A stretch of 45,329 nt of DNA, taken from a virus. The notes under the pieces are model-generated. The model was given only the letters and a program-made list of their open reading frames with translations, was not told where the DNA came from and did not search any database. The translations under genes and the position numbers were made by a program. Shown here one piece after another: positions 1,858 to 22,952 of this stretch; the stretch's first letter is position 1; each line of letters starts with the position of its first letter. The stretch lies in the IMG/VR virus record IMGVR_UViG_3300022542_000430; one strand, given 5' to 3'.

Positions 1858-4367
1858 TGGGCGTAAAGATATTAAAACAGGATTACATAACACCTTTTAA
1901 ACCTAGTTCAAAAACAACTTGGCAGCTAGGTAATACAGGGGATTGGCTCAAAGTCTCCTTAGAGTGCGAATTTTCCGTTGAGAAAGTTTTTACCAACACA
2001 GACAGCTTAACAATTGCGGATCCAAATACTTTGACTTTAAATAGTGGGAAGACTTGGAAAAGCTTTGGGTTTGATGTTGGGTTTACTTGTACTTTAGTTT
2101 ATTATTATACGGATTTAACAAGGCCAAACCCTACGCCCGTACAAAATACTATCTCTTTTACTGTTGAAAGTTTATTAGATAACGTTTTAACAGCAAAAAA
2201 TCCAAGCGGTGCGCCAATAACAACGTGGTCTTATTCTTATGGAGCGGTTGCTCCTATTGGAGTTGGAACTTATGAAATATCAAACGTTTATGTTTACGCT
2301 GATAAGCCAATGGAGGGGATTGAGCTTGAATATGGACAGATACAAAACTCATTAGGCCAAACAGGAACTACCCTAAGTCATTTAGATGGTACGACTACCA
2401 AAATGAGAATGAAAGATACACAACTTTTGACAGTTGGAACAGTTACAGAATTTACACACTACCTAGATTTTAAAAGCGGTATGAGTGTAGAGAAAGGAAC
2501 AGTTACTTTTTTAACTCAACAGGCACATAGATATATTTTCAGGCTTGAACTTATCTTTATGATAAGCACCTTTTACGAGTTTATAACGAACTATGAAGAT
2601 AATGTAGCGCCCGATTGGGTCAAAGCCGCTGCTGCTATAACAGACAGCTTTATAATTACAGGCTATCCAACATATAACAATCCTAATATAAAAGTCCAAA
2701 ACGACCCTAAACAAACATTTCAACTAGGCAATACAGGTTGGTTTGATGAAAACTTTAATCAATTACCAAATCTTTTTGAATTTACCCCCGTAGTGTATAA
2801 GAATTTGGCAGGAACTACGGTAAGCCAATTAGATTATGTGAACCCTATTGTTATGACTACAACAATAAGTGGGATTCAAAATTTAAGCGGTTTATCTACG
2901 TTTCAGTACGGATTCCAATGGGCTACTATTGATGAAGACACTTGGAAGAAAAACAACTATCCATATCATAAAAACACCAAGATTAGTACAGGAGGTAAAG
3001 CTGCTAGTTTAGGCGATGTTTTCAATTTAAGCTCCTTAACCTACGATGCTTACCCTGCTTTAAGAAGTGGGTATAGTCGCGATGGATTGAGCGGAATGGA
3101 TGTTTCAGATATTGTATTCTCACAAAACGCAACAGATAGTACGGCAGTAGATGTAAGTTTGACTTTTAGACCTTCAGCATTGTTCAGCCAAGAAATGGGA
3201 GAACTAAGTGAAGATGAAAGACAGTATATAATTTGGGTAAGCGTTGGAGATATAAGCCCTGCTACTAATTTAGGGGATAGAGTAAGCCTAAAAATAGAAC
3301 CACTTAATACATTAGACACCTTTAAAGAACCTATTGGAGAGTTCCCAGGACTAACGATAGGATTCTTAGACCATCCACAAGACGAAACCGACACACCAAG
3401 AGTTTTAAATAATTGGTATATTGAGGATGGATGTTTGGCAAAGGTTAATTTCACAGTTAATACTGCGGTTGGATCTACAATTCCAATAGTGGAGGCTATT
3501 AATTTTGGCGTATTAGTTAAGAGTTTAACGGATGGTAGTACTTACGAGCTAGACAGCACAAAGGTTGATTTAAGTAGCTATCCTGATGCTACGCAATATG
3601 ACTACGATGTTACTAGAGATTTTAAACTAGAGATAGGGAATAATAAGAACTTTTTAAAGGTTTTATATGATGCTGCTACAACGGTAGGAACTGAGATAGG
3701 TGCTATTGGTTGGTACGGGTTTAAGATGCGTTGGGAGGATTGGAAAGAAAGATTCCCTCATGCACCTATAGCGTTTTATAATAATACATTTAAGAAGAAC
3801 GGATTTAACCAAGATTGGTACGAGTACTTTAGTAATGCAGGGTATTCTTTACACTTCTTTGTAGATATGGACTGTGAGCTTGATGGCGATAAAGTTTCTT
3901 ATAGAAACCTAAAAGAAATTGCTTTAAACGATTACGATAGTAATAGTACAATAAGTACACAAATCAAGTACTACGCAGATAATAACGGGGTCAAAGGTGC
4001 TGCTATTAGTGGTGGGACTTACTTAGGTCTGCCATTAGGAATAATAATAAAAGGAGATTTTGTATGGCTTGATATTGAGTACACAAGCACAGGTACGCCG
4101 TGGACAGATCAAGCCGATGTAGATGCCAATTACTATGGAATTTCTGAAATTGAAGTGGAGAACGGAGGAGGAGAAAAAGACATAAGGCAACTGTCTAGTA
4201 TTTATTTGCCTGAGTTTGGGAATCCATTAATGCCATTACCATCTACCACCCTCGCAACAGTAACATTTAACGCTACAAACAAAATAACAGTAAGTTGCAG
4301 AATAGAAGCCAATAAATTAATAACCGCAGAAACTTATAAAGTGACTGGTAAAATAGGAGGTAAATAA
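1857..4367 (+). CDS. large distal tail / baseplate structural protein (836 aa)
   Basis: Long ORF in the tail module downstream of the tape measure gene; no specific motif recognised. Confidence 0.65.
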   Translation: MGVKILKQDYITPFKPSSKTTWQLGNTGDWLKVSLECEFSVEKVFTNTDSLTIADPNTLTLNSGKTWKSFGFDVGFTCTLVYYYTDLTRPNPTPVQNTISFTVESLLDNVLTAKNPSGAPITTWSYSYGAVAPIGVGTYEISNVYVYADKPMEGIELEYGQIQNSLGQTGTTLSHLDGTTTKMRMKDTQLLTVGTVTEFTHYLDFKSGMSVEKGTVTFLTQQAHRYIFRLELIFMISTFYEFITNYEDNVAPDWVKAAAAITDSFIITGYPTYNNPNIKVQNDPKQTFQLGNTGWFDENFNQLPNLFEFTPVVYKNLAGTTVSQLDYVNPIVMTTTISGIQNLSGLSTFQYGFQWATIDEDTWKKNNYPYHKNTKISTGGKAASLGDVFNLSSLTYDAYPALRSGYSRDGLSGMDVSDIVFSQNATDSTAVDVSLTFRPSALFSQEMGELSEDERQYIIWVSVGDISPATNLGDRVSLKIEPLNTLDTFKEPIGEFPGLTIGFLDHPQDETDTPRVLNNWYIEDGCLAKVNFTVNTAVGSTIPIVEAINFGVLVKSLTDGSTYELDSTKVDLSSYPDATQYDYDVTRDFKLEIGNNKNFLKVLYDAATTVGTEIGAIGWYGFKMRWEDWKERFPHAPIAFYNNTFKKNGFNQDWYEYFSNAGYSLHFFVDMDCELDGDKVSYRNLKEIALNDYDSNSTISTQIKYYADNNGVKGAAISGGTYLGLPLGIIIKGDFVWLDIEYTSTGTPWTDQADVDANYYGISEIEVENGGGEKDIRQLSSIYLPEFGNPLMPLPSTTLATVTFNATNKITVSCRIEANKLITAETYKVTGKIGGK

Positions 4368-6030: not shown

Positions 6031-7533
6031 ATGCCAACTAAAGTATATCCAAGCGGTTCAAATGTCATCGTAGACCAAACAGGGCAACCACTCCTTACTA
6101 TCTTAAAGGAGAGGGCAAAGTATGTCATTATACAACCTACCGTATCAGTAGATGGAATTACCCCTCCTGTTGCATTTACTATTCAATTTATTGACATTTT
6201 TAATGGAGACATTAGGACTGAATCAATAGCGAATGTACAAGACAGTACAGGGGCTTCTTTTGCTAGTCAAATTTTACTAGAAAAATATTTGAGGTTTATT
6301 CCTCATACCTCAACTACACTTTTAGTTGAGCAGCCAACAGTACACACTAAGTACGCTGATTCAATGAGTGTTGATGCTTTTGGACGTGCTAGGGTTTCAA
6401 GTACAGGACAAAGGTTAGATGTGGAGTTTATATATAACAAGCAAGAAGAAATATTTGATGAGGTATTAATTGGAGCGGCAACAGTAACGCATAATGCCAA
6501 CTCTAGGGATTTGACACTAGCTATTAATAGTGCGGTAAATGCTGATAGTGCGGTGATGATGAGTTACCCCGTTCCTTATACTCCTGGGAACTCTCAGTTA
6601 GTGGCAATGACTGGAACAATAAATGAATCTTCTTTAATTGGTGGAGGTGTTGAAATATTTATGAGGTCTAATGTCACAGGTTCTGTTGTTGATACGGCAT
6701 ACTTGCAATCTGATTGGAATATTAATACGGTTGATAATGTTGAGTGGGACACGTCACAGATTTTTATAATGGACTTCCAGTCTTTAAAAGTTGGGCGTAT
6801 TCGTTTTGGACTAGATAGAGGAGGCGTTATTATTCCTGTTCATTCTATTAAAAATGATAACATAAGAAGTACGGGTTTTTGGCAGTTACCTACGTTACCT
6901 ATATCATGGAGAATATATAACGATGCTACCAATACATATTGTGAAGTCTGTTATGGTGACGAATCTAATGGTATAGGATTTAGGTATAAAATTACTGTTG
7001 ATGCTACTGCTCAATTACGGGCTATTTGTGCAACGGTAAAAAGTGAAGGCGGTAAAGATTTAGTTGATTTAACTGGATTCAATAGAACGGCACACATGGG
7101 ATCTAGTAGAGCCACTGTTGGTAATTCCTTGATCCCTATTATATCAATAAGGCCAAAAGCTACTTATAATTCTATTACTAGTAATGGTCTTGTAATCCCT
7201 ATATCTTTTTCAGTAGATAGTGATAATCCTATTCAGTTGATTGTGGTACATGATGGAGTATTAACGGGTGCAGCGTGGAATGACGTAGACACTACTGAAT
7301 CTATCCAAGAAATTGATATAACAGCAAGTTCTTTAGCTAATGGGCATGAAGTTTATTGTGATTATTTTGGTACTGGTAAGAATCAAAGTAACTCAGCAGG
7401 GGGAATTTTAGGAAAGACTTTGTTATGGGATAGAAAAGGAACAGAAACAGGTGTATTTACTATTTGTGCTATAAGAACAACTAATACCAGTGCAGATGTA
7501 TTAATTAGTATTAATTCAAAAGAAATAAGGTAG
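6031..7533 (+). CDS. putative tail fibre / receptor-binding protein (500 aa)
   Basis: Last large ORF of the tail module, Ser/Thr/Asn/Gly-rich; assignment by position only. Confidence 0.45.
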   Translation: MPTKVYPSGSNVIVDQTGQPLLTILKERAKYVIIQPTVSVDGITPPVAFTIQFIDIFNGDIRTESIANVQDSTGASFASQILLEKYLRFIPHTSTTLLVEQPTVHTKYADSMSVDAFGRARVSSTGQRLDVEFIYNKQEEIFDEVLIGAATVTHNANSRDLTLAINSAVNADSAVMMSYPVPYTPGNSQLVAMTGTINESSLIGGGVEIFMRSNVTGSVVDTAYLQSDWNINTVDNVEWDTSQIFIMDFQSLKVGRIRFGLDRGGVIIPVHSIKNDNIRSTGFWQLPTLPISWRIYNDATNTYCEVCYGDESNGIGFRYKITVDATAQLRAICATVKSEGGKDLVDLTGFNRTAHMGSSRATVGNSLIPIISIRPKATYNSITSNGLVIPISFSVDSDNPIQLIVVHDGVLTGAAWNDVDTTESIQEIDITASSLANGHEVYCDYFGTGKNQSNSAGGILGKTLLWDRKGTETGVFTICAIRTTNTSADVLISINSKEIR

Positions 7534-13268: not shown

Positions 13269-13577
13269 ATGAAACTAAAACAGCGAAAGCAAAAAGGCGT
13301 TTCAGCAGAAGCGTTGGAGTTTATAAAGTCGGAGTACTTATCTTTATTAGATAATTATGGTTTTACTGTTGTATCAGCGACAAGACAGGCATCTAATACC
13401 ATTAAAGGGATAACCGTAAGTGGAAAGACTTTAAGAAAGATTTTTGAAGGTGTCCACATTCACACCAAAACCGTAAAGAGTATTATTTTAGAACTTGGCG
13501 AGACTGTGAGCATTGAAAACGGGCTTATTTGTGTTGCTGAAAAAATAGAAAGCGATGAAGACTGTAATAATAATTAA
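13269..13577 (+). CDS. hypothetical protein, first gene of rightward early operon (possible regulator)
   Basis: 102-aa ORF immediately downstream of the promoter/operator region; no firm motif. Confidence 0.55.
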   Translation: MKLKQRKQKGVSAEALEFIKSEYLSLLDNYGFTVVSATRQASNTIKGITVSGKTLRKIFEGVHIHTKTVKSIILELGETVSIENGLICVAEKIESDEDCNNN

Positions 13578-13908
13578 AGGCTTAATAGCAGGGCTTAATG
13601 GCTCAGATGGACTAATGCAAGAACATTACCGTAAAGGAATAAAGAAAAAGAAAAAGTATCAGCAAATAATTAGAAGCCAAACAAAAAACAGGCACGAAGG
13701 GAAAGTGTCTATTACTTATATTGGTTATAAGTCCGTTCTAATGGATTGGGACAATTTTGCAGCTAGTTTTAAGTACTTAGGGGACTCGCTTGTTAAAACG
13801 AAGGTAATTATCGACGACAGCCCAAAAATAGTACGTCCGTTTATTATTCAGCAAATAAAATGTAAGAGAATTGACCAACGGGTTGAAATTATAATTGAAG
13901 ATATTTAA
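13555..13908 (+). CDS. rusA: RusA-like Holliday junction resolvase
   Basis: MDWDNFAASFKYLGDSLVKTKVIIDDSPKI matches the RusA catalytic pattern D.DN..K...D.L......DD. Confidence 0.6.
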   Translation: MKTVIIIKGLIAGLNGSDGLMQEHYRKGIKKKKKYQQIIRSQTKNRHEGKVSITYIGYKSVLMDWDNFAASFKYLGDSLVKTKVIIDDSPKIVRPFIIQQIKCKRIDQRVEIIIEDI

Positions 13909-13946
13909 AAATCCCAAAGCGGTAAAACTAATTATTAATAAAAAAA

Positions 13947-13953
13947 CTTGACA
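13947..13953 (+). promoter_or_regulatory. start-proximal CTTGACA box
   Basis: AAAAAACTTGACAAAATG; 2 nt before ATG 13956. Confidence 0.55.
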
Positions 13954-13955
13954 AA

Positions 13956-14120
13956 ATGGATATAAGCGAAAAAACAATGAAGGGAATGGAACTTCATGAA
14001 CAAGTTCAAATAACAACAAAGGGTAAATATCCAACTACCTTTTTCATAACAAGAACAATAGGCGGATGGATTTACGAATCATCAAACGAACCTGTTCAAT
14101 TCGTTTTCGTAAAAGAGTAA
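13956..14120 (+). CDS. hypothetical small protein (54 aa), absent from the ORF track
   Basis: Hand translation MDISEKTMKGMELHEQ...FVFVKE ending at TAA; preceded by the CTTGACA box in the standard register. Confidence 0.5.
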   Translation: MDISEKTMKGMELHEQVQITTKGKYPTTFFITRTIGGWIYESSNEPVQFVFVKE

Positions 14121-14155
14121 ACACCCACTTAAAAATTAATTTAACTAAATAAAAA

Positions 14156-14162
14156 CTTGACA
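14156..14162 (+). promoter_or_regulatory. start-proximal CTTGACA box
   Basis: AAAAACTTGACAAGATG; 2 nt before ATG 14165. Confidence 0.55.
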
Positions 14163-14164
14163 AG

Positions 14165-14635
14165 ATGAAAACAATATTCAGTAAAGAATACCTATTAGAG
14201 AATAAAGGATACTACGATAATGAAGATATAGAAAAAGGAATGCTTCATTTCAAAGAAAACAAAGAAATAACTTTGGAGCAGCTTTTTGAGTACCTACCGA
14301 TTAAAGACTTCTGTTGGTTGTTAGTCAGAAAGTGTGAATTAAGTTTATTACAAAAGCAATTCTTTAGTTTATCGTGTGCCGATTTTGTTCTGAAATTTTA
14401 CGAAGCTAAATACCCAAATGACATGAGGGTTAGAGAATGCAACAAAGCGACTAGAGATTATATAAATGGCGATATTAGCAAAGAAGAACTTTTAACTTAT
14501 GCCGCTTCTGCGGCTTCTGCGGCTTCTGCGGCTTCTGCGGCTTCTGCGGATTATGCGGCTTATGCGGATTCATTAGTAGAATTTAAAGAATCAGTAAGAG
14601 TCTTTGTTTTTGAAACCCTCAAAACTATAAAATAG
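14165..14635 (+). CDS. hypothetical protein with C-terminal (AAS)n / AAYA repeat
   Basis: 156-aa ORF; contains 8 tandem 9-bp units at 14501-14572. Confidence 0.6.
   Translation: MKTIFSKEYLLENKGYYDNEDIEKGMLHFKENKEITLEQLFEYLPIKDFCWLLVRKCELSLLQKQFFSLSCADFVLKFYEAKYPNDMRVRECNKATRDYINGDISKEELLTYAASAASAASAASAASADYAAYADSLVEFKESVRVFVFETLKTIK
14501..14572 (+). repeat. 8 x 9-bp tandem repeat (GCGGCTTCT and variants) inside the CDS
   Basis: Read directly; encodes AASAASAASAASAASADYAAYADS. Confidence 0.85.
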
Positions 14636-14636
14636 C

Positions 14637-14822
14637 ATGACCCCAATACAGAAAGCAGAAAAAACGATAAAACGCTTAAAATCTTTTGTAACAATCCAAA
14701 GCACCAAGATACGAAAGTATAAAACTAAGGTTGGAGGACTAATGCGAATTGTTGCTGAGAAGGATAAGGATATTTGTAAACTTGAAAAATACATTCAAAC
14801 CATCCACAATGAAAGCGATTGA
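14637..14822 (+). CDS. hypothetical small basic protein
   Basis: 61-aa ORF starting 2 nt after the previous stop. Confidence 0.5.
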   Translation: MTPIQKAEKTIKRLKSFVTIQSTKIRKYKTKVGGLMRIVAEKDKDICKLEKYIQTIHNESD

Positions 14823-15168
14823 TTTAACCAAGATAGCTTCTTACTTATTCAGGCAGCCCCCCAACCACAAACGCCAGGACTTGATGCACGAGATTTACGC
14901 TATCACTAAGGGATTGCACCCGAAGGATGAAGTAAAGATTGAGTTCAGCAAAGAGCTACAAGACTACCTAAAAAATACCAACGTGAAAGAGATAACAGAA
15001 ACCGCAGGGAAGTTATTCAAGATAGCCCAATTCTTAAAGAAGAACGACCACCAAAGCGAACTATCAAAGAAGATATTTAAAGCTGTTAAAAACGTTCCTA
15101 AGAGTAAAGATGTAACAGTTCCTTTAACTTTGAATGAGTTTTTAGTCATTGAGTCACTAGAAAATTAA
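14809..15168 (+). CDS. hypothetical protein
   Basis: Start moved to ATG 14809 (MKAIDLTK); the longer track ORF from 14749 would overlap the previous gene by 74 nt. Confidence 0.5.
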   Translation: MKAIDLTKIASYLFRQPPNHKRQDLMHEIYAITKGLHPKDEVKIEFSKELQDYLKNTNVKEITETAGKLFKIAQFLKKNDHQSELSKKIFKAVKNVPKSKDVTVPLTLNEFLVIESLEN

Positions 15169-15178
15169 AATAAAACAA

Positions 15179-15601
15179 ATGAAACTAAAAAAGCTAATAG
15201 AAGAATTTAAAAACGATGGGGTTTTATTTGATAAGCTTTACACTTTTGATGAGTTTTTCGAGCAGTTAGATGATTATGCTTTTGAAAGCGGAAATATAAA
15301 AAGAGCTTGGAATATTTTAACCAACTATAAGGATTCACTAAAAGAGTCTTTAACCTTGTCTATGTTTATAAAGGAAGATGTGAATCCTTTGTTATTTGAA
15401 GGGTTTAAAATAGAGATTCAAAACAAACAAAACACCATCATAAATAATGGTAATGTCGAGTTGTTTTTTATAAAAGTAAGAGAATGTGTAATAATAGGCT
15501 TTTGTTATTTAGACAAACCAAGCGGAGAATCTAAGCGACCTAAAACCCTGCACGATTTAGCAGAAGCCACAAAAGAAAACCCCTTAACCCTAGCCCAATG
15601 A
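15179..15601 (+). CDS. hypothetical protein
   Basis: 140-aa ORF. Confidence 0.55.
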   Translation: MKLKKLIEEFKNDGVLFDKLYTFDEFFEQLDDYAFESGNIKRAWNILTNYKDSLKESLTLSMFIKEDVNPLLFEGFKIEIQNKQNTIINNGNVELFFIKVRECVIIGFCYLDKPSGESKRPKTLHDLAEATKENPLTLAQ

Positions 15602-15681
15602 AACGACTTTTAACAATCCTATTACTAACCACCCTACTATTCACCGTTATTGGGTTATGGCGGTGGTGCGTGGGGGTCTAA
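15598..15681 (+). CDS. possible 27-aa hydrophobic micropeptide (MKRLLTILLLTTLLFTVIGLWRWCVGV)
   Basis: ATGA overlap with the upstream stop; a single TM-like helix; too short to be sure. Confidence 0.3.
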   Translation: MKRLLTILLLTTLLFTVIGLWRWCVGV

Positions 15682-15694
15682 AACAAAAAACAAG

Positions 15695-15958
15695 ATGAAA
15701 AAAGTAAATTCGTTATTAGAATCAGATGAAATGCAAAACCAATTTATAGGGTACAATCTACTAATAAGCCAATTTGGCATTTCAGAATACGATGCAAAAG
15801 GGCAATTAGCCGAAGCGAACCAAGACGAAGTATGCGATTTATGTTCTGATGAACATTTTGACGGAATTAGCACAAGTTCTGCAACATTTCTTTGTGAGGG
15901 TAGTAGGTGTCCTGAATCTGTGCAATTGTACTTTGAACATATGAACGATTCTCTTTAA
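15695..15958 (+). CDS. hypothetical Cys-rich protein (possible zinc finger)
   Basis: Start moved to ATG 15695 (MKKVNS; the track start is a TTG); has CDLC....C..SRC. Confidence 0.5.
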   Translation: MKKVNSLLESDEMQNQFIGYNLLISQFGISEYDAKGQLAEANQDEVCDLCSDEHFDGISTSSATFLCEGSRCPESVQLYFEHMNDSL

Positions 15959-16001
15959 CCCTGCCACAAACGGCACTTATAACTTATCAACAACTTTAAA
16001 A

Positions 16002-16008
16002 CTTGACA
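16002..16008 (+). promoter_or_regulatory. start-proximal CTTGACA box
   Basis: TAAAACTTGACAGAATG; 2 nt before ATG 16011. Confidence 0.55.
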
Positions 16009-16010
16009 GA

Positions 16011-16607
16011 ATGAAAGAAACATGGAAGCCAGTAAATCACAAAGGCAAAACGTACCTAAACTACAAGGTGTCAAATCTTGGTAACGTTTGGAAGATAAAA
16101 GATAACAAAATCCTTAAACCTGTTATCTTAAAAACTGGCGTACACTATTCCTATTTAGTAGAAGGGAAGAAAAACATTCCTATTCATTTGTTAGTTTGGC
16201 AGTCTTTCAAAGGTAAGATTAAGGAAGGGTTTTTAATCTCTCATAAAGATGGAGATAAGTATAATAATCGCCTGGAGAACTTAGAAAAGATTACACATAG
16301 ACAAAAGCAGTCTAAAGATAACGGGCTTCCTATTGGGGTACTACTCACTAAGTCGGGTACATTTAGATCAAGCATTCGACTAGGTAAAAAAAAGCTTCAT
16401 TTAGGTATTTATTTACGTGCTATCAATGCAGATAAGGCTTATGAGATAGCTTATAAATTAATCATAAGCGGAAAGTGTACCGATGAAATAAAGATTAAAG
16501 AAGCGGTCAATGTCTTGCGTAAAAAGATACGGCTCAAACCTTTGCTTGATGCAACTAGGAGACTAAGCACACAACCGAAGCCTAAACATATTATTTATAA
16601 TTGGTAG
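16011..16607 (+). CDS. HNH homing endonuclease (NUMOD4 + HNH_3 + AP2-like DNA-binding region)
   Basis: WKPV..YKVSNLGNVW (NUMOD4), HKDGDKYNNRLENLE (HNH), GVLLTKSGTFRSSIRLGKKKLHLGIY (AP2-like). Confidence 0.85.
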   Translation: MKETWKPVNHKGKTYLNYKVSNLGNVWKIKDNKILKPVILKTGVHYSYLVEGKKNIPIHLLVWQSFKGKIKEGFLISHKDGDKYNNRLENLEKITHRQKQSKDNGLPIGVLLTKSGTFRSSIRLGKKKLHLGIYLRAINADKAYEIAYKLIISGKCTDEIKIKEAVNVLRKKIRLKPLLDATRRLSTQPKPKHIIYNW

Positions 16608-16622
16608 CTATCTTAAATTAAG

Positions 16623-16646
16623 AAGGGCAAAAATGACCCCTTTTTT
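16623..16646 (+). terminator. weak intrinsic terminator after the HNH gene
   Basis: AAGGG (16623-16627) pairs with CCCTT (16638-16642); the T run extends to 16646. Confidence 0.4.
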
Positions 16647-16663
16647 CTGATAATATATAGAAA

Positions 16664-17026
16664 ATGAGAAATGCTGAACAAATAAAAGGGCTACTTGGTT
16701 CTAGTGAAAAATCAAACAACTTGCTAGGAATTTACTGGTGCTTCCATAATGGAATGTTTGCTGATGACATTATTGACTTTTTAAGAATAGATAATGAGCA
16801 TTGGGATATTGCCGAAATTGAAATAAAAGGGAATCTATTATTAGGGATTGACGTAATAGAGCAAAGGACATATGAAAGGTGTTTTTTTGATGTGCCACTA
16901 AGGAAAAGAATTGAGATGATAGGGTTAAAAACTATTATTTCTTTTGATGAGAATATGTTTCAATTAATAGAGTTCATTATTACTGAGGAAGGAAAAAGAT
17001 ATATCCAAATGAGCATTAAAAAGTAA
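16664..17026 (+). CDS. hypothetical protein
   Basis: 120-aa ORF. Confidence 0.55.
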   Translation: MRNAEQIKGLLGSSEKSNNLLGIYWCFHNGMFADDIIDFLRIDNEHWDIAEIEIKGNLLLGIDVIEQRTYERCFFDVPLRKRIEMIGLKTIISFDENMFQLIEFIITEEGKRYIQMSIKK

Positions 17027-17059
17027 CTGGTTATAACTGGTTATTTTTAGGATGTTTAA

Positions 17060-17242
17060 ATAATTATTCGTATATTGTGGAACGGCAGTAAGTAAGGTGA
17101 GATATACTTTCTGTTGAGTTACAAAAAACAAGACCAAAAAAATATAATTTCTAAAGATATTAAAGCTTTGGAGGTACTAGGATTACACGCAATTTCTTGT
17201 TTTAGTCGTGTTTCTCACCCTATACCTCCAAAGCTTTTTTTT
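17060..17242 (+). promoter_or_regulatory. leader element A: 27-nt conserved promoter-like box, ~150-nt structured leader and long terminator hairpin (candidate attenuator, antitermination site or sRNA)
   Basis: Box ATAATTATTCGTATATTGTGGAACGGC (17060-17086) is identical to 18214-18240. GGTGAGA 17096-17102 complements TCTCACC 17213-17219. The 15-bp stem 17162-17176/17223-17237 is followed by a T run to 17242. Confidence 0.6.
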
Positions 17243-17258
17243 GTTTAAAATTGAAATT

Positions 17259-17846
17259 ATGGATATTGAAAATTGTGCTTATTCATTTGAAGGAGAATAT
17301 TTCGACAAGAATAAAGAGTTTTGGGAATCTGACGACCTAGACCCTATTGATTCTTTTTTTATATCATCACTAAAGGTGTTTCACTATAGCGATACTTCGG
17401 AGTCGTGGCTTCCTTTTATTGCCTCCTATGAAGATGTTATATTCCTTCCTTCGTTTAATGGCGTTAAAGTAGGTGATGTATTTTTGTCGAGTCGGGTTGA
17501 ATGGATGGAAAGAGCAGACGATAAGCCTAATAATATTATATCTGTTTTTGATATTAAGAAAGAACTAAACTACACATATCTAGTTTTTGGAAACGACGAA
17601 ATAAGCCTATCTGTTGATATTAATCACATAGAGCGATACATAAAAGATATAGGAGCAAAATACATTTGCAACGCATTTGACGACAAACACCTAATGTATG
17701 ACAAGTGTTCATTTGAAAGAAATATGGTTGAAAAATCTCATTTAAAACGGTGTTTGCGGTACTACAAAGAAGGGTTTGAGGACTTATCACAGGAGAAACT
17801 AGAAAGAGAGATAGAAGAAGGATTACACGACATGCCATCTAACTAA
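17259..17846 (+). CDS. hypothetical protein (195 aa)
   Basis: Start moved to ATG 17259 (MDIENCAY); the track GTG start at 17208 lies inside the terminator hairpin. Confidence 0.6.
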   Translation: MDIENCAYSFEGEYFDKNKEFWESDDLDPIDSFFISSLKVFHYSDTSESWLPFIASYEDVIFLPSFNGVKVGDVFLSSRVEWMERADDKPNNIISVFDIKKELNYTYLVFGNDEISLSVDINHIERYIKDIGAKYICNAFDDKHLMYDKCSFERNMVEKSHLKRCLRYYKEGFEDLSQEKLEREIEEGLHDMPSN

Positions 17847-17870
17847 CCCACCGAAAAAAACAACGAAATT

Positions 17871-18200
17871 ATGAAAGAAGAAATTATAATTGATTTCATT
17901 TATTTAAGATACAAAGCGATGTACGGATTCCCTCAAGGTTATTGTGGGCAAATCGCAGAGGAGATACAAAAAACCATTGGAGGGGAATTAGTAGCAGGGT
18001 ATTTGGCTTTCCCTTCTCACAATAGGGAGCATTGGTGGTTGGATTTAGACAATAAGATAATAGACCCGATGTCTGTTGAATTACAAAAAACCGACCCACA
18101 TAGGCATATAGAGATACATAGAGATTTGTCAAGAAGGTACTGGATTAAAGGATTTAATAAACAAAAAAAGATAAAAGCAAACGAAGGAATGCCCTTCTAA
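17871..18200 (+). CDS. small transglutaminase-like / papain-fold cysteine peptidase-like protein (109 aa)
   Basis: GYCGQIA ... REHWWLDL ... IIDP follows the Cys / His-aromatic / Asp-Pro order of the transglutaminase-like core. Confidence 0.4.
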   Translation: MKEEIIIDFIYLRYKAMYGFPQGYCGQIAEEIQKTIGGELVAGYLAFPSHNREHWWLDLDNKIIDPMSVELQKTDPHRHIEIHRDLSRRYWIKGFNKQKKIKANEGMPF

Positions 18201-18213
18201 TTTTGCGGTCTGG

Positions 18214-18415
18214 ATAATTATTCGTATATTGTGGAACGGCGAAAGCCAAATGCTATTTAGAATGTGAGAGACTCTATGTAGTAAGTTTAAAAGAAACAAA
18301 CTAAAAATATAACTTCTTTTCAATATCAAATGGTATTGAAGAGAGTAGCACGTGCTTTATGTTTCTTTTGCACACTCTCAAACTTTTACGCTACTTTCTT
18401 CAATACCATTTTTTT
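18214..18415 (+). promoter_or_regulatory. leader element B: paralog of element A upstream of the replication initiator and helicase genes
   Basis: Same 27-nt box (18214-18240). GTGAGA 18264-18269 lies upstream and TGAGAG 18265-18270 complements CTCTCA 18375-18380. AAAAATATAACTTCT sits at 18303-18317. The 19-bp stem 18330-18348/18391-18409 is followed by a T run to 18415. Confidence 0.6.
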
Positions 18416-18431
18416 GTTTAATTTTAAACTT

Positions 18432-19262
18432 ATGAGAGGATTTGTAAAGTTACACAGGCAACTTATAGAATGGGAATGGTATCATGATATGAATGTAAAG
18501 GCTACTTTCTTGCATTTACTGCTTACTGTTAATTTTAAGGATAAGCGATGGAAAGGTATATTAATCAAGCGAGGGCAAATATTAACTAGCTTGCAGCACT
18601 TAGCCGATGCTATTGGTATATCAGTGCAAAAACTACGCACAGCACTACTAAAGCTAGAGGACACTAATGAAATAACAAGGGAAGCAACAAGCCTTTTTAC
18701 TATGATAACTGTCTGTAACTTCGACAGTTACCAAGATAAAGACCTTATGCAGCAACAAGCGGATAACAAACCATCAACAAGCGAGCAACAAGCGGATAAC
18801 AAACCATCAACAAGCGAGCAACAACTACTAGAGAATGTTAAGAATGAAGAGAAGGATAATAATGAAGAGAAAAAATACCCTTACATAGAGATTTTCCAAA
18901 AAATAAAAAACGGCGAATTAATCAGAGTAACACAATTAGATAAAAACTTTCACTTTGGCTTATTCCCTGATGATTGGTCTGAAAACTTCCAAAATGAAAT
19001 ACTTAGCTTTTGGCGTTACATGGAAAGTAAGAAATCAGATCGTTGGGGCGTAATTGGAACAATATCTAGTCAATTAAGCGCAATTAAAAGTTATTTACAA
19101 GATTACACCGAAAATGAGATAATAAGCGCATTTGGCGAAACCATAAGCAAAGGAAATGTTTCTTGGAATCCTCTTTGGACTAAAAACCGAGATAAAATCT
19201 CAAAAGCAAAAAACGGACACGTTCCCACTTTTTCATATAACAGCAAAATAAGCAACGCATGA
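18432..19262 (+). CDS. putative replication initiator / replisome organiser (N-terminal winged-helix domain)
   Basis: MRGFVKLHRQLIEWEWY...FLHLLL..N....W.G....RGQ.LTS...LA...G.S....R.AL..LE is typical of phage replication-protein N-termini. It lies immediately upstream of dnaB. Start moved from 18330 to ATG 18432. Confidence 0.6.
   Translation: MRGFVKLHRQLIEWEWYHDMNVKATFLHLLLTVNFKDKRWKGILIKRGQILTSLQHLADAIGISVQKLRTALLKLEDTNEITREATSLFTMITVCNFDSYQDKDLMQQQADNKPSTSEQQADNKPSTSEQQLLENVKNEEKDNNEEKKYPYIEIFQKIKNGELIRVTQLDKNFHFGLFPDDWSENFQNEILSFWRYMESKKSDRWGVIGTISSQLSAIKSYLQDYTENEIISAFGETISKGNVSWNPLWTKNRDKISKAKNGHVPTFSYNSKISNA
18752..18825 (+). repeat. 2.2 x 33-bp tandem repeat (GCAACAAGCGGATAACAAACCATCAACAAGCGA) inside the initiator gene; candidate origin iterons
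   Basis: Read directly; encodes QQADNKPSTSE twice. Confidence 0.8.
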
Positions 19263-20707
19263 ACCAAGAACTACCAAACGAACCAGAAGTTGAAGCAAGA
19301 TTGTTATCTGCAATAATTCAAAGCCCTGCAAGTATTTACAATTGCCTTAGCTTATTGAACGCTGAATGTTTTTATACTCAAAAATATAAGAACCTATGGG
19401 AATTAATAATTGAGCTACACAATAAAAAAGAATCATTTGATTTAGTTGGGATAGCATCAGGACTAAAAGATAAAAACCAATTAGAAGCTTTTGGAGGATT
19501 CGCAGGAGTTGCAGACTTTACAAGTAAATACTTTACTCACGATGTTACAGGAGCAAGTCGCATCCTTCACTCTAAGTTCATAAGAAGGAAAGCTATTGTA
19601 TCAAATTACGAACTAATCCGATTAGCTTTTGACCCAATGACCGACATAGAGACAGAAATATCAAAAGCACAAAACAAGCTAAATGAGGACATATCTAGTC
19701 ATATTGACATTACTAGCACCGCTCAAGATGTTTCAATGGATATAGCAAGGGAAATAAGTGATAATCTAGGGAAATACAAAGAAGTTACGGGCGTTCCAAC
19801 TGGCTTTGAAAGTTATGATAAAAGAATTAGCGGATTATCAACAGAAGGAGATATAATAATAATCGCAGGTCGTCCAGCGATGGGAAAAACAACTTTTGCT
19901 TTAAATATTGCTCAAAACGCACAAAAGATATTTGGGAACAATGGCGCATTCTTTAGCCTTGAAATGAGTAAAAGGCAGCTTTGTAGAATCCTTTTAGCCC
20001 AACAAACAGGTGTTTCTGCTGATAGTTTAAAGAAAAACAAAGTAACTGACATTGAAATAGAGCATATTTTCAACAAACTAGCAGAAGATCCAAAGGCAAA
20101 GCTATTTATAGACGATGAAAGCCCACAATTAAGCTACATTGTATCTAAAATCCATAAATTAAAGCGTGACGAAGATATACAATTTGTTGTTATCGACTAT
20201 ATGCAACTAATCGCTTGTGAAGCTAAGAACAACAGGGAAAAAGAAATAGAGCATATTTCAAGAACATTAAAGAGAGTATCAAAAGCACTTGAAATAGCCA
20301 TAATTCCACTTTGTCAACTAAGTAGAGCAGTTGAGAATAGAGGGGGTTCTAAAGTGCCTCAATTATCAGACTTAAGAGACTCAGGCTCTATTGAACAAGA
20401 TGCTTCTGTAGTTACTTTTATTTATAGACCAGAGTATTACGGAATAACACAAGATGAAGAAGGAAACAGCCTTGAAGGTGTTACCGTTTTGGTAACTAAA
20501 AAGAATAGATTTGGAGAGATAGGGAATGATTATTTATATTTTGATAAAGAAATGTCAGAGTTTTTTGATTATGACCACACAACAGGAAATAAAGTATCTG
20601 CTGATATGTATGATATGAGATTAGTAACAATGCAAAATATGAGAGTAGATACTGTTAGTAATTTTGCACAAAAAATAGAAGATGAAAACAAAACAGAGAA
20701 TTGGTAA
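19259..20707 (+). CDS. dnaB: replicative DNA helicase, DnaB family
   Basis: Walker A GRPAMGKTTFALNIAQ, VVIDYMQLI, LCQLSRAVENR, LSDLRDSGSIEQDASVV. Confidence 0.92.
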   Translation: MNQELPNEPEVEARLLSAIIQSPASIYNCLSLLNAECFYTQKYKNLWELIIELHNKKESFDLVGIASGLKDKNQLEAFGGFAGVADFTSKYFTHDVTGASRILHSKFIRRKAIVSNYELIRLAFDPMTDIETEISKAQNKLNEDISSHIDITSTAQDVSMDIAREISDNLGKYKEVTGVPTGFESYDKRISGLSTEGDIIIIAGRPAMGKTTFALNIAQNAQKIFGNNGAFFSLEMSKRQLCRILLAQQTGVSADSLKKNKVTDIEIEHIFNKLAEDPKAKLFIDDESPQLSYIVSKIHKLKRDEDIQFVVIDYMQLIACEAKNNREKEIEHISRTLKRVSKALEIAIIPLCQLSRAVENRGGSKVPQLSDLRDSGSIEQDASVVTFIYRPEYYGITQDEEGNSLEGVTVLVTKKNRFGEIGNDYLYFDKEMSEFFDYDHTTGNKVSADMYDMRLVTMQNMRVDTVSNFAQKIEDENKTENW

Positions 20708-20854
20708 AGTTGCAACAGTTGGAGATATAGCAAAACTATTTCTTCAAGAACTAAAAAAAGAGCATACAACCAAAAAGGCACCGACTACGAAGCAAAAGTA
20801 ATAGCACGGTACTCTAAACTAATAATATTAAAGTCATATTTAAACTAAAAAGCA

Positions 20855-21574
20855 ATGAATACTAAAGTCATTCACGGATGTTGCATGAAAGAATTAAAAT
20901 CTATACCTCAAGGGTCGGTAGATATGATTCTTTGTGATTTACCTTATGGATGCACAAATAACAAATGGGATAGTGTTTTACCTTTATCAATGCTTTGGTG
21001 TCAATATAAGCGAATTATAAAACCTGCAGGTATAATCGTGTTGTTTGGACAAGGAGTATTTAGTGCAACTCTAATGCTATCAAATAGAGAAATGTATAGA
21101 TATAGCTTAGTTTGGGAAAAATCAACACCAACAGGGTTTTTGAATGCTAATAAAATGCCTTTGAGAAGCCATGAGGATATTCTAGTATTTTACAATAAGT
21201 TACCAACTTATCACCCTCAAAAAACAACAGGACACAAAAGGAAAGTAAGTAAATCATCACACCAAAAGGGCAAATCTACTGACAGCTACAATAAATTTCA
21301 TGCAAGTAGCTACGACAGTACAGAACGATTTCCTAAGAGCGTTTTAAGATTCTCTACTGATAAGCAAAAGAGTGCTATCCATCCAACACAAAAGCCCGTT
21401 AAACTAATTGAGTACCTAATTAGGACTTATACAAATGAGGGTGACTTTATAGTTGATAATTGCGCAGGGAGTGGGACAACAGGAGAAGCTGCAGAAAATA
21501 CGAATAGAAAATATTTACTTATTGAAAAAGAAGAAAAATATTATAATGAAATTTTAAAAAGATTAAAGAAATGA
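20855..21574 (+). CDS. orphan site-specific DNA methyltransferase (N4-C/N6-A, beta-class motif order)
   Basis: Motif IV-like ILCDLPYG near the N-terminus and AdoMet motif I VDNCAGSGTTGEAA near the C-terminus; no adjacent restriction gene. Confidence 0.85.
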   Translation: MNTKVIHGCCMKELKSIPQGSVDMILCDLPYGCTNNKWDSVLPLSMLWCQYKRIIKPAGIIVLFGQGVFSATLMLSNREMYRYSLVWEKSTPTGFLNANKMPLRSHEDILVFYNKLPTYHPQKTTGHKRKVSKSSHQKGKSTDSYNKFHASSYDSTERFPKSVLRFSTDKQKSAIHPTQKPVKLIEYLIRTYTNEGDFIVDNCAGSGTTGEAAENTNRKYLLIEKEEKYYNEILKRLKK

Positions 21575-21846
21575 AAGTAAGAACAAAAATAGAAGTAACC
21601 GCCATCTACTCCAAAGAAGAAACGGCAGAAGTCAAAGAACTCATAAACCACATGAGTAATGCAAGATTCAAACACGTAATATCATCACTTGCAACAGAAA
21701 CCGAACAAGGAAACTACCGATACGCCAAACAATTTGACCACTTTAGCCTTGATATGCTAAAAAAAGCCTGCCAAACAACTAAGCTACAAAAGAACGGCTA
21801 TACCGTATTTCTAAAAAAGAAAGCTTCCGACTTCGTGCAAAAATAA
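21571..21846 (+). CDS. hypothetical protein
   Basis: 91-aa ORF with ATGA overlap to the methyltransferase gene; see the finding on the in-frame extension after its TAA. Confidence 0.55.
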   Translation: MKVRTKIEVTAIYSKEETAEVKELINHMSNARFKHVISSLATETEQGNYRYAKQFDHFSLDMLKKACQTTKLQKNGYTVFLKKKASDFVQK

Positions 21847-22063
21847 AAGCCGTTTAAAACAGAGGAATTAGCACGAGATTTTATAAAATCTTACAGGGAA
21901 ACACCGAAAAAGGGCGAAACGCTTGTTATTATGAAAGAACTACTCAGGGATAAGTAGAGAAGCCTACGAAGAGTGCCAAAATGCGAAATTGAATTAACGA
22001 GCTTTATGTCGTGAAAAGAATACACTTGAAGCGTAAAAATTACAAATTAAATAATTATTAAAA

Positions 22064-22070
22064 CTTGACA
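22064..22070 (+). promoter_or_regulatory. start-proximal CTTGACA box
   Basis: ATAATTATTAAAACTTGACAAAATG; 2 nt before ATG 22073. Confidence 0.55.
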
Positions 22071-22072
22071 AA

Positions 22073-22345
22073 ATGAAAATAAGCGTACCATTTACAGCCC
22101 TTCAATTAGTTGGAGATAGGACTAAAATTGAAATGAATTGCATTTGCGGACAACCGATAAAGCGAGAGGATATAGAACTCTTTGTAAGGACAAAGGGAAA
22201 CAATACAAGAACTAATCTATCCTTTGAATGCTCCAACTGCACCTATGTAACCGAGAACAGCGAATGGGGCGAAATTACAGACGACAAAGAAATAATTGAA
22301 TCAATATTTGATAACGTAGACCAAAACTTAAAAAACAATGTGTGA
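22073..22345 (+). CDS. hypothetical zinc-ribbon-like protein
   Basis: CICGQP ... CSNCTY cysteine pairs. Confidence 0.5.
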   Translation: MKISVPFTALQLVGDRTKIEMNCICGQPIKREDIELFVRTKGNNTRTNLSFECSNCTYVTENSEWGEITDDKEIIESIFDNVDQNLKNNV

Positions 22346-22952
22346 ATTTGAAGAACAAATGAAAAATGCTAATTTAAGAGAAGAATACGAAAAAGTATTA
22401 GCAGAAAAGAACGCTCAAAAATTGATAATCATAAAATACGAGGAATCACAGTCCAAAATACTATTGGAGAATACCGACCTAATATTAGATAATGAGAAGC
22501 TAAGAAAAGAATTAAGTATTGAGATTCAAGAACGGGAGAACTTGAAAAATGTGAATAAAAAACAGTACGACCTTATCAAAGAGCTAAATCAAAAGATAAT
22601 AGGGAAAAATGAAGAGATAAATGCATTAATTGGGGCGGGAACGGTACATGAAGAAGGGGTTGAGTTATATAAAAAAGATGTTGAAGATTATAAAGGAGAG
22701 ATTGAATCATTAAAAGAACACAACACAATACTAAAAGATTGCGACTATAGCCAAACAAAGAAAATAAGAGAACTGCAAAAGTGGGCGAAAATCAAGAACA
22801 AGGACAATGCAAGGCTTGAAAAGCTTTATACTTTAGGGTGGGAAATAGAAGCAAAAAAGAACAAGCTACTTATTAAACTCGACAAGCAGAAACACAAAAA
22901 CCGAAAACTAAAGAAGTTCAAGAAACTTTTAAAGCAGCTAAAAATAAATTAA
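22338..22952 (+). CDS. hypothetical coiled-coil protein
   Basis: 204 aa, Lys/Glu/Leu-rich with a heptad-like pattern. Confidence 0.55.
   Translation: MCEFEEQMKNANLREEYEKVLAEKNAQKLIIIKYEESQSKILLENTDLILDNEKLRKELSIEIQERENLKNVNKKQYDLIKELNQKIIGKNEEINALIGAGTVHEEGVELYKKDVEDYKGEIESLKEHNTILKDCDYSQTKKIRELQKWAKIKNKDNARLEKLYTLGWEIEAKKNKLLIKLDKQKHKNRKLKKFKKLLKQLKIN

Follow-up and report, generated by a model that had tools for sequence, protein, structure and literature searches.

The virus record IMGVR_UViG_3300022542_000430 of IMG/VR, analyzed here over its whole length of 45,329 nucleotides (nt; hereafter the window), carries a structured leader on its + strand, element B (18214-18431), that ends at the ATG (18432) of a gene for a DnaD-like helicase loader/initiator. 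We propose, with a probability of roughly 55%, that B is a promoter-proximal transcription attenuator in which terminator and antiterminator folds are clamped by pairing between upstream boxes and antiboxes inside the terminator hairpin. The element is a genuine, non-random feature and one of a wider group of structured leaders, among them a paralog in the same genome, element A. The original prediction had placed B directly before the replication initiator and DnaB genes, and PHROG profiles bear out both assignments (18432-20707). B may gate and time replication.

All features listed for B in the original prediction are present with the coordinates and sequences it gave. The element opens with a 27-nt box, ATAATTATTCGTATATTGTGGAACGGC (18214-18240). 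A small GNRA-capped hairpin, GGC-GAAA-GCC (18238-18247), stands at the predicted 5' end in the minimum free energy (MFE) fold and is missing from A. In predicted folds, hairpin P1 (18251-18283) carries box1, GUGAGAG (18264-18270), in its loop; this box includes the GTGAGA noted earlier at 18264-18269. Box2, AAAAGAAACA (18289-18298), can pair over 10 bp with 18360-18369, a part of the terminator hairpin's apical loop. The A-rich motif AAAAATATAACTTCT, read directly at 18303-18317, is overlapped by the candidate antiterminator strand (18312-18327), which pairs with 18332-18346 in the terminator 5' arm. A 19-bp hairpin had been described (18330-18348 with 18391-18409); folding and an inverted-repeat search both extend it to 22 bp (18328-18349 with 18390-18411, 95% complementary). 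Within it, the fold places an inner stem P3 (GUGC 18352-18355 with GCAC 18370-18373), an apical loop (18356-18369) with antibox2, UGUUUCUUUU, at 18360-18369, and a 3' internal loop with antibox1, CUCUCA (18375-18380). The hairpin leads into the tail TTTTTTTGTTTAA (18409-18421), a U7 run then GUUUAA, which is common to B, A and one related element (L003a). Antibox1 complements UGAGAG in box1 (18265-18270) and also a second copy of this sequence (18433-18438) that overlaps the ATG at 18432 and covers codons 1-3 of the initiator gene. TGAGAG occurs six times on the + strand of the 45-kb genome, two of these in B (18265 in the P1 loop and 18433 on the start codon), and CTCTCA occurs three times on that strand, once in the hairpin of B. 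The original prediction did not include the box2 pairing with the apical loop, which is the stronger one, the antiterminator hairpin, the UGAGAG on the start codon or the wider group.

No inverted repeats in the genome are longer than the hairpins of A and B. A run of U7-8 follows each hairpin, with a start codon about 20 nt downstream. Both leaders fold more stably than dinucleotide shuffles (z-scores of -5.6 for B and -3.7 for A). Both show the stable hairpin and U-tract of an intrinsic terminator, with 22 bp and U7 in B and 15-19 bp and U8 in A, and transcripts are predicted to be released at these U-tracts. A simple scanner missed both terminators because their loop of ~40 nt is unusually large. 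The tail TTTTTTTGTTTAA by itself was not enriched when mismatches were allowed.

Folding of truncated transcripts points to an alternative structure. In transcripts that end before the terminator 3' arm, the MFE structure of A, B and the other elements of their class (the long class, below) combines box2:antibox2 with an antiterminator hairpin, the former enclosing the latter. The antiterminator of B has 15 bp, including two G.U pairs. In both A and B, the upstream strand copies the terminator 3' arm in weakened form, C-to-U changes having replaced G-C by G.U pairs. The strand pairs with its own arm at -9.6 kcal/mol in A and -10.4 kcal/mol in B, against a mean of about -3 for non-cognate combinations; both rank 0 of 19, and comparison with shuffles gives p = 0.012 for A and p = 0.004 for B. 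The A-rich motif is present as the original prediction said, but its standing as a sequence signal is qualified by this result: its 3' half is a strand of the antiterminator hairpin, and the motif reported as conserved, AAAAATATAA(C/T)TTCT, overlaps that strand.

The long-range pairings are likewise specific to each element. In an alignment-free test of 24 elements, the best upstream partner of an apical loop was its own or one of the same specificity in essentially every case. The loop pairs with its own upstream region at -9.0 kcal/mol in A (mean -5.5) and -9.2 kcal/mol in B (mean -5.4), and box2 of B ranks 1 of 23 in the cognate versus non-cognate comparison. Bipartite complementarity between upstream and interior regions has the same topology in 5/5 elements, and box1:antibox1 ranks 0 in 5/7 long-class elements. 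The GTGAGA/TCTCA complementarity noted earlier proved real, and it covaries in relatives, which carry UUAGGAAC/GUUCCUAA, GUAGGAAG/CUUCCUAC, UGGACGU/GCGUCCA and GUGAGAC/GUCUCAC. For the duplex with the downstream start codon, B ranks 2 of 24 and A, which has no downstream copy, 17 of 24; this target is not general, being non-significant for A and for most members of the short class described below.

In the proposed mechanism, a Bacteroidota-type promoter in the 27-nt box would start RNA synthesis near 18236 and produce a structured leader of ~180 nt, and the 22-bp hairpin with its U7 run could halt the polymerase ~17 nt before the initiator AUG. During synthesis, 18312-18327 would pair with the terminator 5' arm, so that the antiterminator would form first, and this fold would be clamped by box2 with the apical loop and by box1, in the P1 loop, with the 3' internal loop. 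We infer from these folds that the clamp decides the outcome. While it holds, polymerase would read into the DnaD-like and DnaB genes; when it fails, the more stable terminator would form and a short RNA of ~180 nt would be released. The released RNA probably also pairs with nascent leaders in trans, which could provide feedback or immunity of the kind exerted by P4 CI, P1 c4 or plasmid countertranscripts, and in B it may pair with the initiator start codon as well. Such action in trans is likely because the boxes and antiboxes lie in loops, vary between relatives and are orthogonal in box2 between A and B.

Element A (17060-17258, + strand, before an ATG at 17259) is a true paralog of B, as predicted: its parts stand in the same order, and the terminator stems differ in sequence while keeping their structure. 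Its box (17060-17086) is identical to that of B. P1 of A (17083-17116) has a different stem sequence and a retained loop, with box1 GGUGAGA at 17096-17102; antibox1, the complement UCUCACC, lies at 17213-17219. Box2 of A, AAAACAAGA (17125-17133), matches antibox2, UCUUGUUUU (17195-17203); the sequences of this pair differ between A and B with complementarity kept in each, so box1 is shared by the two elements and the box2 pairs are orthogonal. The antiterminator strand of A (17147-17156) is predicted to pair with 17166-17175 within the terminator, whose arms lie at 17162-17176 and 17223-17237 ahead of the U8 run, and the fold places P3 at 17186-17189 with 17207-17210. The protein encoded downstream of A has no homologs beyond identical copies, and orthologous A elements could therefore not be collected.

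The 27-nt box occurs exactly twice in the window (17060 and 18214), in agreement with the original prediction, and no chance match is expected even with three mismatches. Outside the box, A and B are ~64% identical, and at that rate the probability of 27/27 identity is about 6e-6, which implies either extra constraint on the box or gene conversion. The box comprises a putative extended promoter, ATAATTATT, upstream of a -7-like motif, TATATTGT (18225-18232), and the predicted first transcribed bases, AACGGC. Bacteroidota sigma-A promoters have the consensus TAnnTTTG at -7, with TTTG at -33 about 19 nt upstream. In B, the -7-like motif matches 6/8 positions and a TTTG (18202-18205) lies 19 nt before the TATATTG at 18225; A has only TTTA at the -33 position, with a 21-nt spacer. 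The reading of the box as a promoter gains from the canonical TAnnTTTG found at the homologous place in relatives and loses from the imperfect motif in the window and from the missing -33 TTTG of A. The counterpart of the box in a related element (L002b), for example, is CGTATATTTGGGGTAACGGCAGTA with a canonical TAnnTTTG, and AATTATT precedes the -7 motif in short-class members too. A scanner for sigma-70-type promoters and terminators was uninformative for this organism.

Scans of viral contigs with exact and degenerate box patterns returned only the contig L002 and one other, L016, and the same kind of scan of a metagenome collection, from which the window's contig is absent, gave chance matches only. 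L016 has a near-copy of the box (CGTATATTGGTGGAACGGCAG) after a TTTG at 3880-4100, where the leader/terminator architecture is absent and the following genes lie on the opposite strand; it is either a similar promoter or a chance match. Just upstream of the box of A (17024-17043) are two tandem copies of TAACTGGTTA, each an imperfect palindrome, that look like an operator; the unit has no other exact copy in the genome and no counterpart upstream of B. The sole intergenic match to a canonical Bacteroidota promoter in the window, TTTG-N19-TAACTTTG (25462-25492), lies just upstream of two tRNA genes (25779-25852 and 26884-26954).

The identity of the two boxes also fits a protein-dependent processive antitermination cassette, as in lambda PR'-qut-6S-tR' with Q or nut with N, in which the box would be a factor loading site and A and B would be switched on together as a temporal class. 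We regard this as quite improbable. It would account for a 27/27 identical box beside ~64% elsewhere, for the suboptimal -7 motif kept in both copies, and for the position of the box over the promoter and first transcribed bases, like qut; the order of promoter, short RNA, strong terminator and genes is that of PR'-tR' (PMC7547250). Yet it leaves the covarying box:antibox pairs and the antiterminator strand unexplained, and relatives with several elements (L002, L003 and L145) lack identical boxes. PHROGs and Pfam searches of the early genes, many of which have no family, recognized no Q-, N- or sigma-like protein, and no integrase or repressor was recognized either.

Relatives of the element were reached through the initiator protein, whose homologs led to four contigs (L001-L004). 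Scans of viral contigs with single proteins (DnaD-like or DnaB) gave nothing, so that an alignment query was needed; it fetched 80 viral loci and 79 genome loci. Of the four contigs, three (L002, L003 and L004) have elements built like A and B, five in all, which stand before other genes that are unrelated. The five (L002a, L002b, L003a, L003b and L004a) and the window's own pair make up a long class of seven, and A and B fit its definition, which was drawn up in this analysis. Its members share the order of promoter (with a canonical TAnnTTTG in the relatives), P1 with box1 in its loop, box2, an A/U-rich linker, and a terminator hairpin (60 nt or longer, with a GC stem inside it) and U-run, followed by an ATG 7-25 nt on. 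Throughout the class, the 3' internal loop is matched by box1 and the apical loop by box2, with sequences that differ from element to element, and the inner 4-bp GC stem covaries among the elements. A MAFFT alignment of the seven was too poor for a covariance model. The proteins encoded downstream of different elements are unrelated, which indicates a portable cassette.

The loci fetched by the alignment query revealed a short class of ~105 nt, at the head of DnaD-like replication operons. Its members have TAnnTTTG, a 5-bp P1 with a 14-nt loop, the conserved linker AAAGGAAUUAUU, and a terminator made of P2 (11 bp), an internal loop (UGAA/GGAU), P3 (4 bp) and a 10-nt apical loop, followed by a U-run. 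A covariance model of P1, linker and P2/P3 (R1), built from 12 members, found 25 at E < 0.001, and the class as a whole exceeds 25. The matches include metagenome-assembled genomes of Flavobacterium, Chitinophagaceae and Flavobacteriales, and a prophage of the isolate Sphingobacterium psychroaquaticum DSM 22418. They also include the cultured Cellulophaga phage phi18:3 (43.5 bits, E = 5e-7, filters off), where the element lies on the - strand between gp008 and gp007, in a region free of annotation (1139-1247 of locus L236, equal to about 3067-3175 of NC_021794.1), upstream of the DnaD-like loader gp006; its box CUUCUGAC matches the loop GUCAGAAG. Searches of the elements against deposited phage genomes with blastn returned nothing, and the phi18:3 member surfaced only with the covariance model. 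No such element was present in those prophages of Flavobacteriaceae that have DnaD-like genes (Winogradskyella and Psychroserpens).

Covariation in the short class supports both the stems and the long-range pairing. TAnnTTTG stands at a fixed position in 25/25 members. In the alignment of these 25 sequences, pairing was scored for P1, P2, P3 and the kissing helix between the P1 and P3 loops (L1:L3), the last being outside the model. Paired cells amount to 97.3%, compared with 66.8% in column shuffles (0/500 shuffles as high) and 31-47% when partners were slid. The kissing helix alone is 97% paired, with 6/8 pairs changed on both sides, and the members carry 12 box/antibox specificities. Among closely related members compared in pairs, divergence per site is 0.167 for the variable kissing columns, 0.082 for other helices and 0.114 for unpaired columns; this is suggestive, not proof, of selection for new specificities. 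U.G pairs are frequent in P2, so the structure is strand-specific and hence one of RNA.

Bacteroides-type viral contigs and a Sphingobacterium prophage contain a third class, richer in GC (L145 5440-5650 and 5790-5990; L128 ~6390-6600; L144 ~6400-6610; L152 ~6400-6600; L177 3600-3850). The upstream box of these elements is long and pairs inside the terminator hairpin, which is a three-way one; the box recurs downstream, where it overlaps the AUG of the next gene. The resulting layout of box, antibox and box at the AUG is clear in this class, in L177 (GCGAACAUAACAAAGC / GCUUUGUUAUGUUUCGC / AUGCGAAACAUAAC) and in L002a. In every class, the upstream box is complementary to the loops of the terminator hairpin.

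Much of this comparison also suits A and B as genes for stand-alone small RNAs (sRNAs) that act in trans through their loops, in an antisense-like or immunity role, with readthrough being incidental. A promoter, two or three hairpins and a Rho-independent terminator are the layout of a bacterial sRNA gene, and the boxes and antiboxes lie in loops, like those of antisense RNAs. The 12 specificities among 25 short-class members, kissing columns that change ~2x faster than other helices, and the orthogonal box2 pairs of two elements in one genome favor such a role too. So does the match of the antibox to the next AUG region in the GC-rich class, L177 and L002a, to which B adds UGAGAG on its start codon. 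There is also a precedent, the short PR'-tR' RNA that acts as the sRNA StxS (PMC7547250). Nevertheless, the terminator always stands 7-25 nt before a start codon on the same strand; this leaves no space for another promoter, and downstream expression must therefore pass through the terminator. The cognate antiterminator strands of A and B also speak against sRNA genes, intramolecular pairing would compete with trans action, and the analysis identified no external target. The data fit a small RNA acting in trans as well as they fit action purely in cis, but we consider it unlikely that the elements are sRNA genes for which readthrough is incidental.

A passive role is the least probable explanation that we weighed. 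The element would then be punctuation or a mobile cassette: an operon boundary, a recombination joint, a DNA-level element such as an origin or cruciform, or a coding extension from the ATG at 18330. T4 PeSL cassettes offer a comparison for a joint of the module-shuffling kind, and it fits a passive role that the element precedes unrelated genes in different phages, that the tail TTTTTTTGTTTAAAAT...ATG is common to A, B and L003a, and that an HNH endonuclease gene lies near B. The frequent G.U pairs, however, indicate a strand-specific structure of RNA, not duplex DNA, and the compensatory changes seen in four helices imply that the RNA fold is under selection. The order of promoter then terminator is the opposite of that at a gene-end boundary, and iteron-like repeats lie elsewhere (18751-18816). 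In favor of a coding extension, an uninterrupted frame runs from the ATG at 18330, inside the hairpin, into the initiator gene. This coding reading was rejected, since the protein family begins at the ATG at 18432: PHROG DnaD-like profiles align from residue 1 there, and the database gene call and homologs begin there as well. With the true start at 18432, the hairpin of B is non-coding.

Several observations weigh against attenuation in B. Foremost, box:antibox pairing might leave the terminator intact: the antiboxes sit in loops, outside the terminator stem, and a pseudoknot or kissing complex that includes both structures could form in place of competition between them. The A/U-rich box2 pairings are weak (-7 to -8 kcal/mol), and single box2 pairings are marginal against shuffles (p = 0.07 to 0.15). 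In the short class, only 4 bp resemble an antiterminator, and this pairing is not significant. The R1 model does not recognize A (18.3 bits, E = 9.9) or B (no hit), whereas true short-class members score 39-110 bits; A and B share the design of the short class, not its sequence family. The closest relatives of the initiator gene (on L001-L004) have no element directly before it. Finally, the -7 motif in the window is imperfect and canonical promoters are rare in this phage, so the box could have a role other than that of a host-sigma promoter.

The window is a complete phage genome of ~45.2 kb, circularly closed or terminally redundant, with an exact 141-bp direct repeat at its two ends (1-141 and 45189-45329). 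Its DNA similarity to Cellulophaga and Riemerella phages is weak only, and its gene content (terminase, portal, endolysin, Erf and RusA) fits a siphovirus-like phage of Flavobacteriia. Assemblies from two other samples contain the same phage with identical elements A and B, and these samples therefore provide no microdiversity. The early and replication genes form a co-directional block on the + strand (13269-22952). Element B is flanked upstream by a 109-aa open reading frame (ORF; 17871-18200, + strand) and directly downstream by the 276-aa DnaD-like loader/initiator (18432-19262, + strand), then by DnaB helicase (19259-20707, + strand) and a DNA methylase gene. Within the DnaD-like gene, six tandem 11-nt units (AGCAACAAGCG / GATAACAAACC / ATCAACAAGCG; 18751-18816) resemble iterons and, lying just downstream of B, probably mark the replication origin.

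Other repeats occur elsewhere in the genome. Eight or more early genes (13948, 14157, 16003 and 22065 on the + strand; 25437, 25147, 24882 and 24706 on the - strand) have their start codon directly in the motif AAAAC-TTGACA-(A/G)(A/G)-ATG, which could be a phage-specific translation-initiation signal or a regulator binding site. About eight tandem copies of a 9-nt unit, CTTCTGCGG (14487-14576), lie near the 3' end of a 156-aa ORF with a weak Imm5-like Pfam match. After an 874-aa gene, GC-rich 23-nt repeats with GGCC-N-GGCC palindromes (ATTAGGCCCCGTTGGCCAATACGC / ATTGGGCCCGTTGGCCCAC; 44843-44931) stand out against the AT-rich genome, in which elements A and B have ~30% GC.

The group of structured leaders is apparently undescribed. 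Rfam 15 gave no match in the window or in 10 related loci apart from tRNAs, the best sub-threshold hits being hairpin look-alikes with E > 0.2, and none of its C4 antisense RNA, IsrK/SeqA, riboswitch and leader families reached the gathering score. Full-text literature searches returned no description of such elements in Bacteroidota phages. More tentatively, we speculate that phages and prophages of Bacteroidota (Flavobacteriia, Sphingobacteriia, Chitinophagia and Bacteroidia) share a modular RNA device, a promoter-proximal terminator hairpin with loops that pair to a 5' box and sometimes to the next start codon. With exchangeable specificities of 6-10 nt, it could be an RNA-only, self-addressed switch for replication genes, and a code for immunity, incompatibility or copy control, analogous to P4 CI, P1 c4 and plasmid antisense RNAs but of separate evolutionary origin.

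Almost nothing is known of the timing of gene expression in Bacteroidota phages, whose hosts are major in the ocean and the gut. If the proposal is correct, these leaders would be the first RNA-based gate for replication genes in this phylum, and their base-pairing code, evidently re-programmable, would have at least 12 specificities in nature on a single scaffold. Heteroimmunity and competition among related phages would become directly testable, and the elements could supply orthogonal terminator switches for the genetic engineering of Bacteroidota. Experiments are feasible because the cultured phage phi18:3 and the isolate prophage (S. psychroaquaticum DSM 22418) carry members.

Among known systems, platforms such as riboswitches, T-boxes and leader attenuators have, as proposed for A and B, exclusive hairpins that share a 5' arm, with a more stable terminator and an earlier antiterminator. 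Unlike these, A and B have no conserved ligand pocket, tRNA-specifier logic or leader peptide, and variable pairing boxes would take the place of the sensor. The rep genes of plasmids pT181, pIP501 and pAMbeta1 are controlled by countertranscript-driven attenuation. There, as proposed for B, a terminator lies just before the initiator gene, pre-emptive upstream pairing with its 5' arm decides readthrough, and recognition is by kissing. The plasmid regulator comes from the opposite strand, whereas here the partner is in the same sense RNA and no conserved antisense promoter was seen.

Lambdoid PR'-6S/StxS-tR' similarly places a strong terminator within ~200 nt of a promoter, gates a gene block and releases a short RNA as a by-product. 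According to PMC7547250, this RNA acts as the sRNA StxS. The lambdoid system gates late genes, needs Q and a DNA/pause site, and is without covarying intramolecular box:antibox pairs.

The immI operon of P1/P7 (a1b1 - a'b' - a2b2) produces c4, an RNA with two-part loop complementarity to targets upstream and downstream, the latter on the translation start of the next gene. It is freed by RNase P and blocks translation, after which Rho-dependent termination follows. A c4-like three-part layout is found here in the GC-rich class, L177, L002a and possibly B, while A has no downstream copy. The antibox hairpin of our elements is an intrinsic terminator, with a 3' end predicted from termination and no evident tRNA-like fold, in contrast to the RNase P processing of c4. 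In P1, c4 is needed for full ant repression (PMC8198154).

P4 immunity is close to the proposed mechanism, in that an untranslated leader precedes the phage's own replication genes and a small structured RNA pairs with leader sequences. Its specificity covaries between relatives. P4 is proteobacterial, and its CI RNA is processed from the leader and is without sequence or Rfam similarity to A and B, in which an intrinsic terminator carries the antibox. According to PMC4825925, CI RNA ends transcription prematurely by pairing with the replication operon's leader at seqA and seqC. Pairing thus promotes termination in P4; in A and B, it may either promote or prevent it. The kind of control that we propose, RNA-pairing-controlled termination ahead of replication genes, is known. 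Elements A and B differ from the P4, c4, plasmid and PR'-tR' systems in host phylum, in having no detectable sequence or Rfam similarity to any of them, in an antibox placed inside an intrinsic terminator, and in having both partners on the sense strand; if they work as proposed, the leader-embedded antisense RNA logic of P4 and P1 would have arisen more than once.

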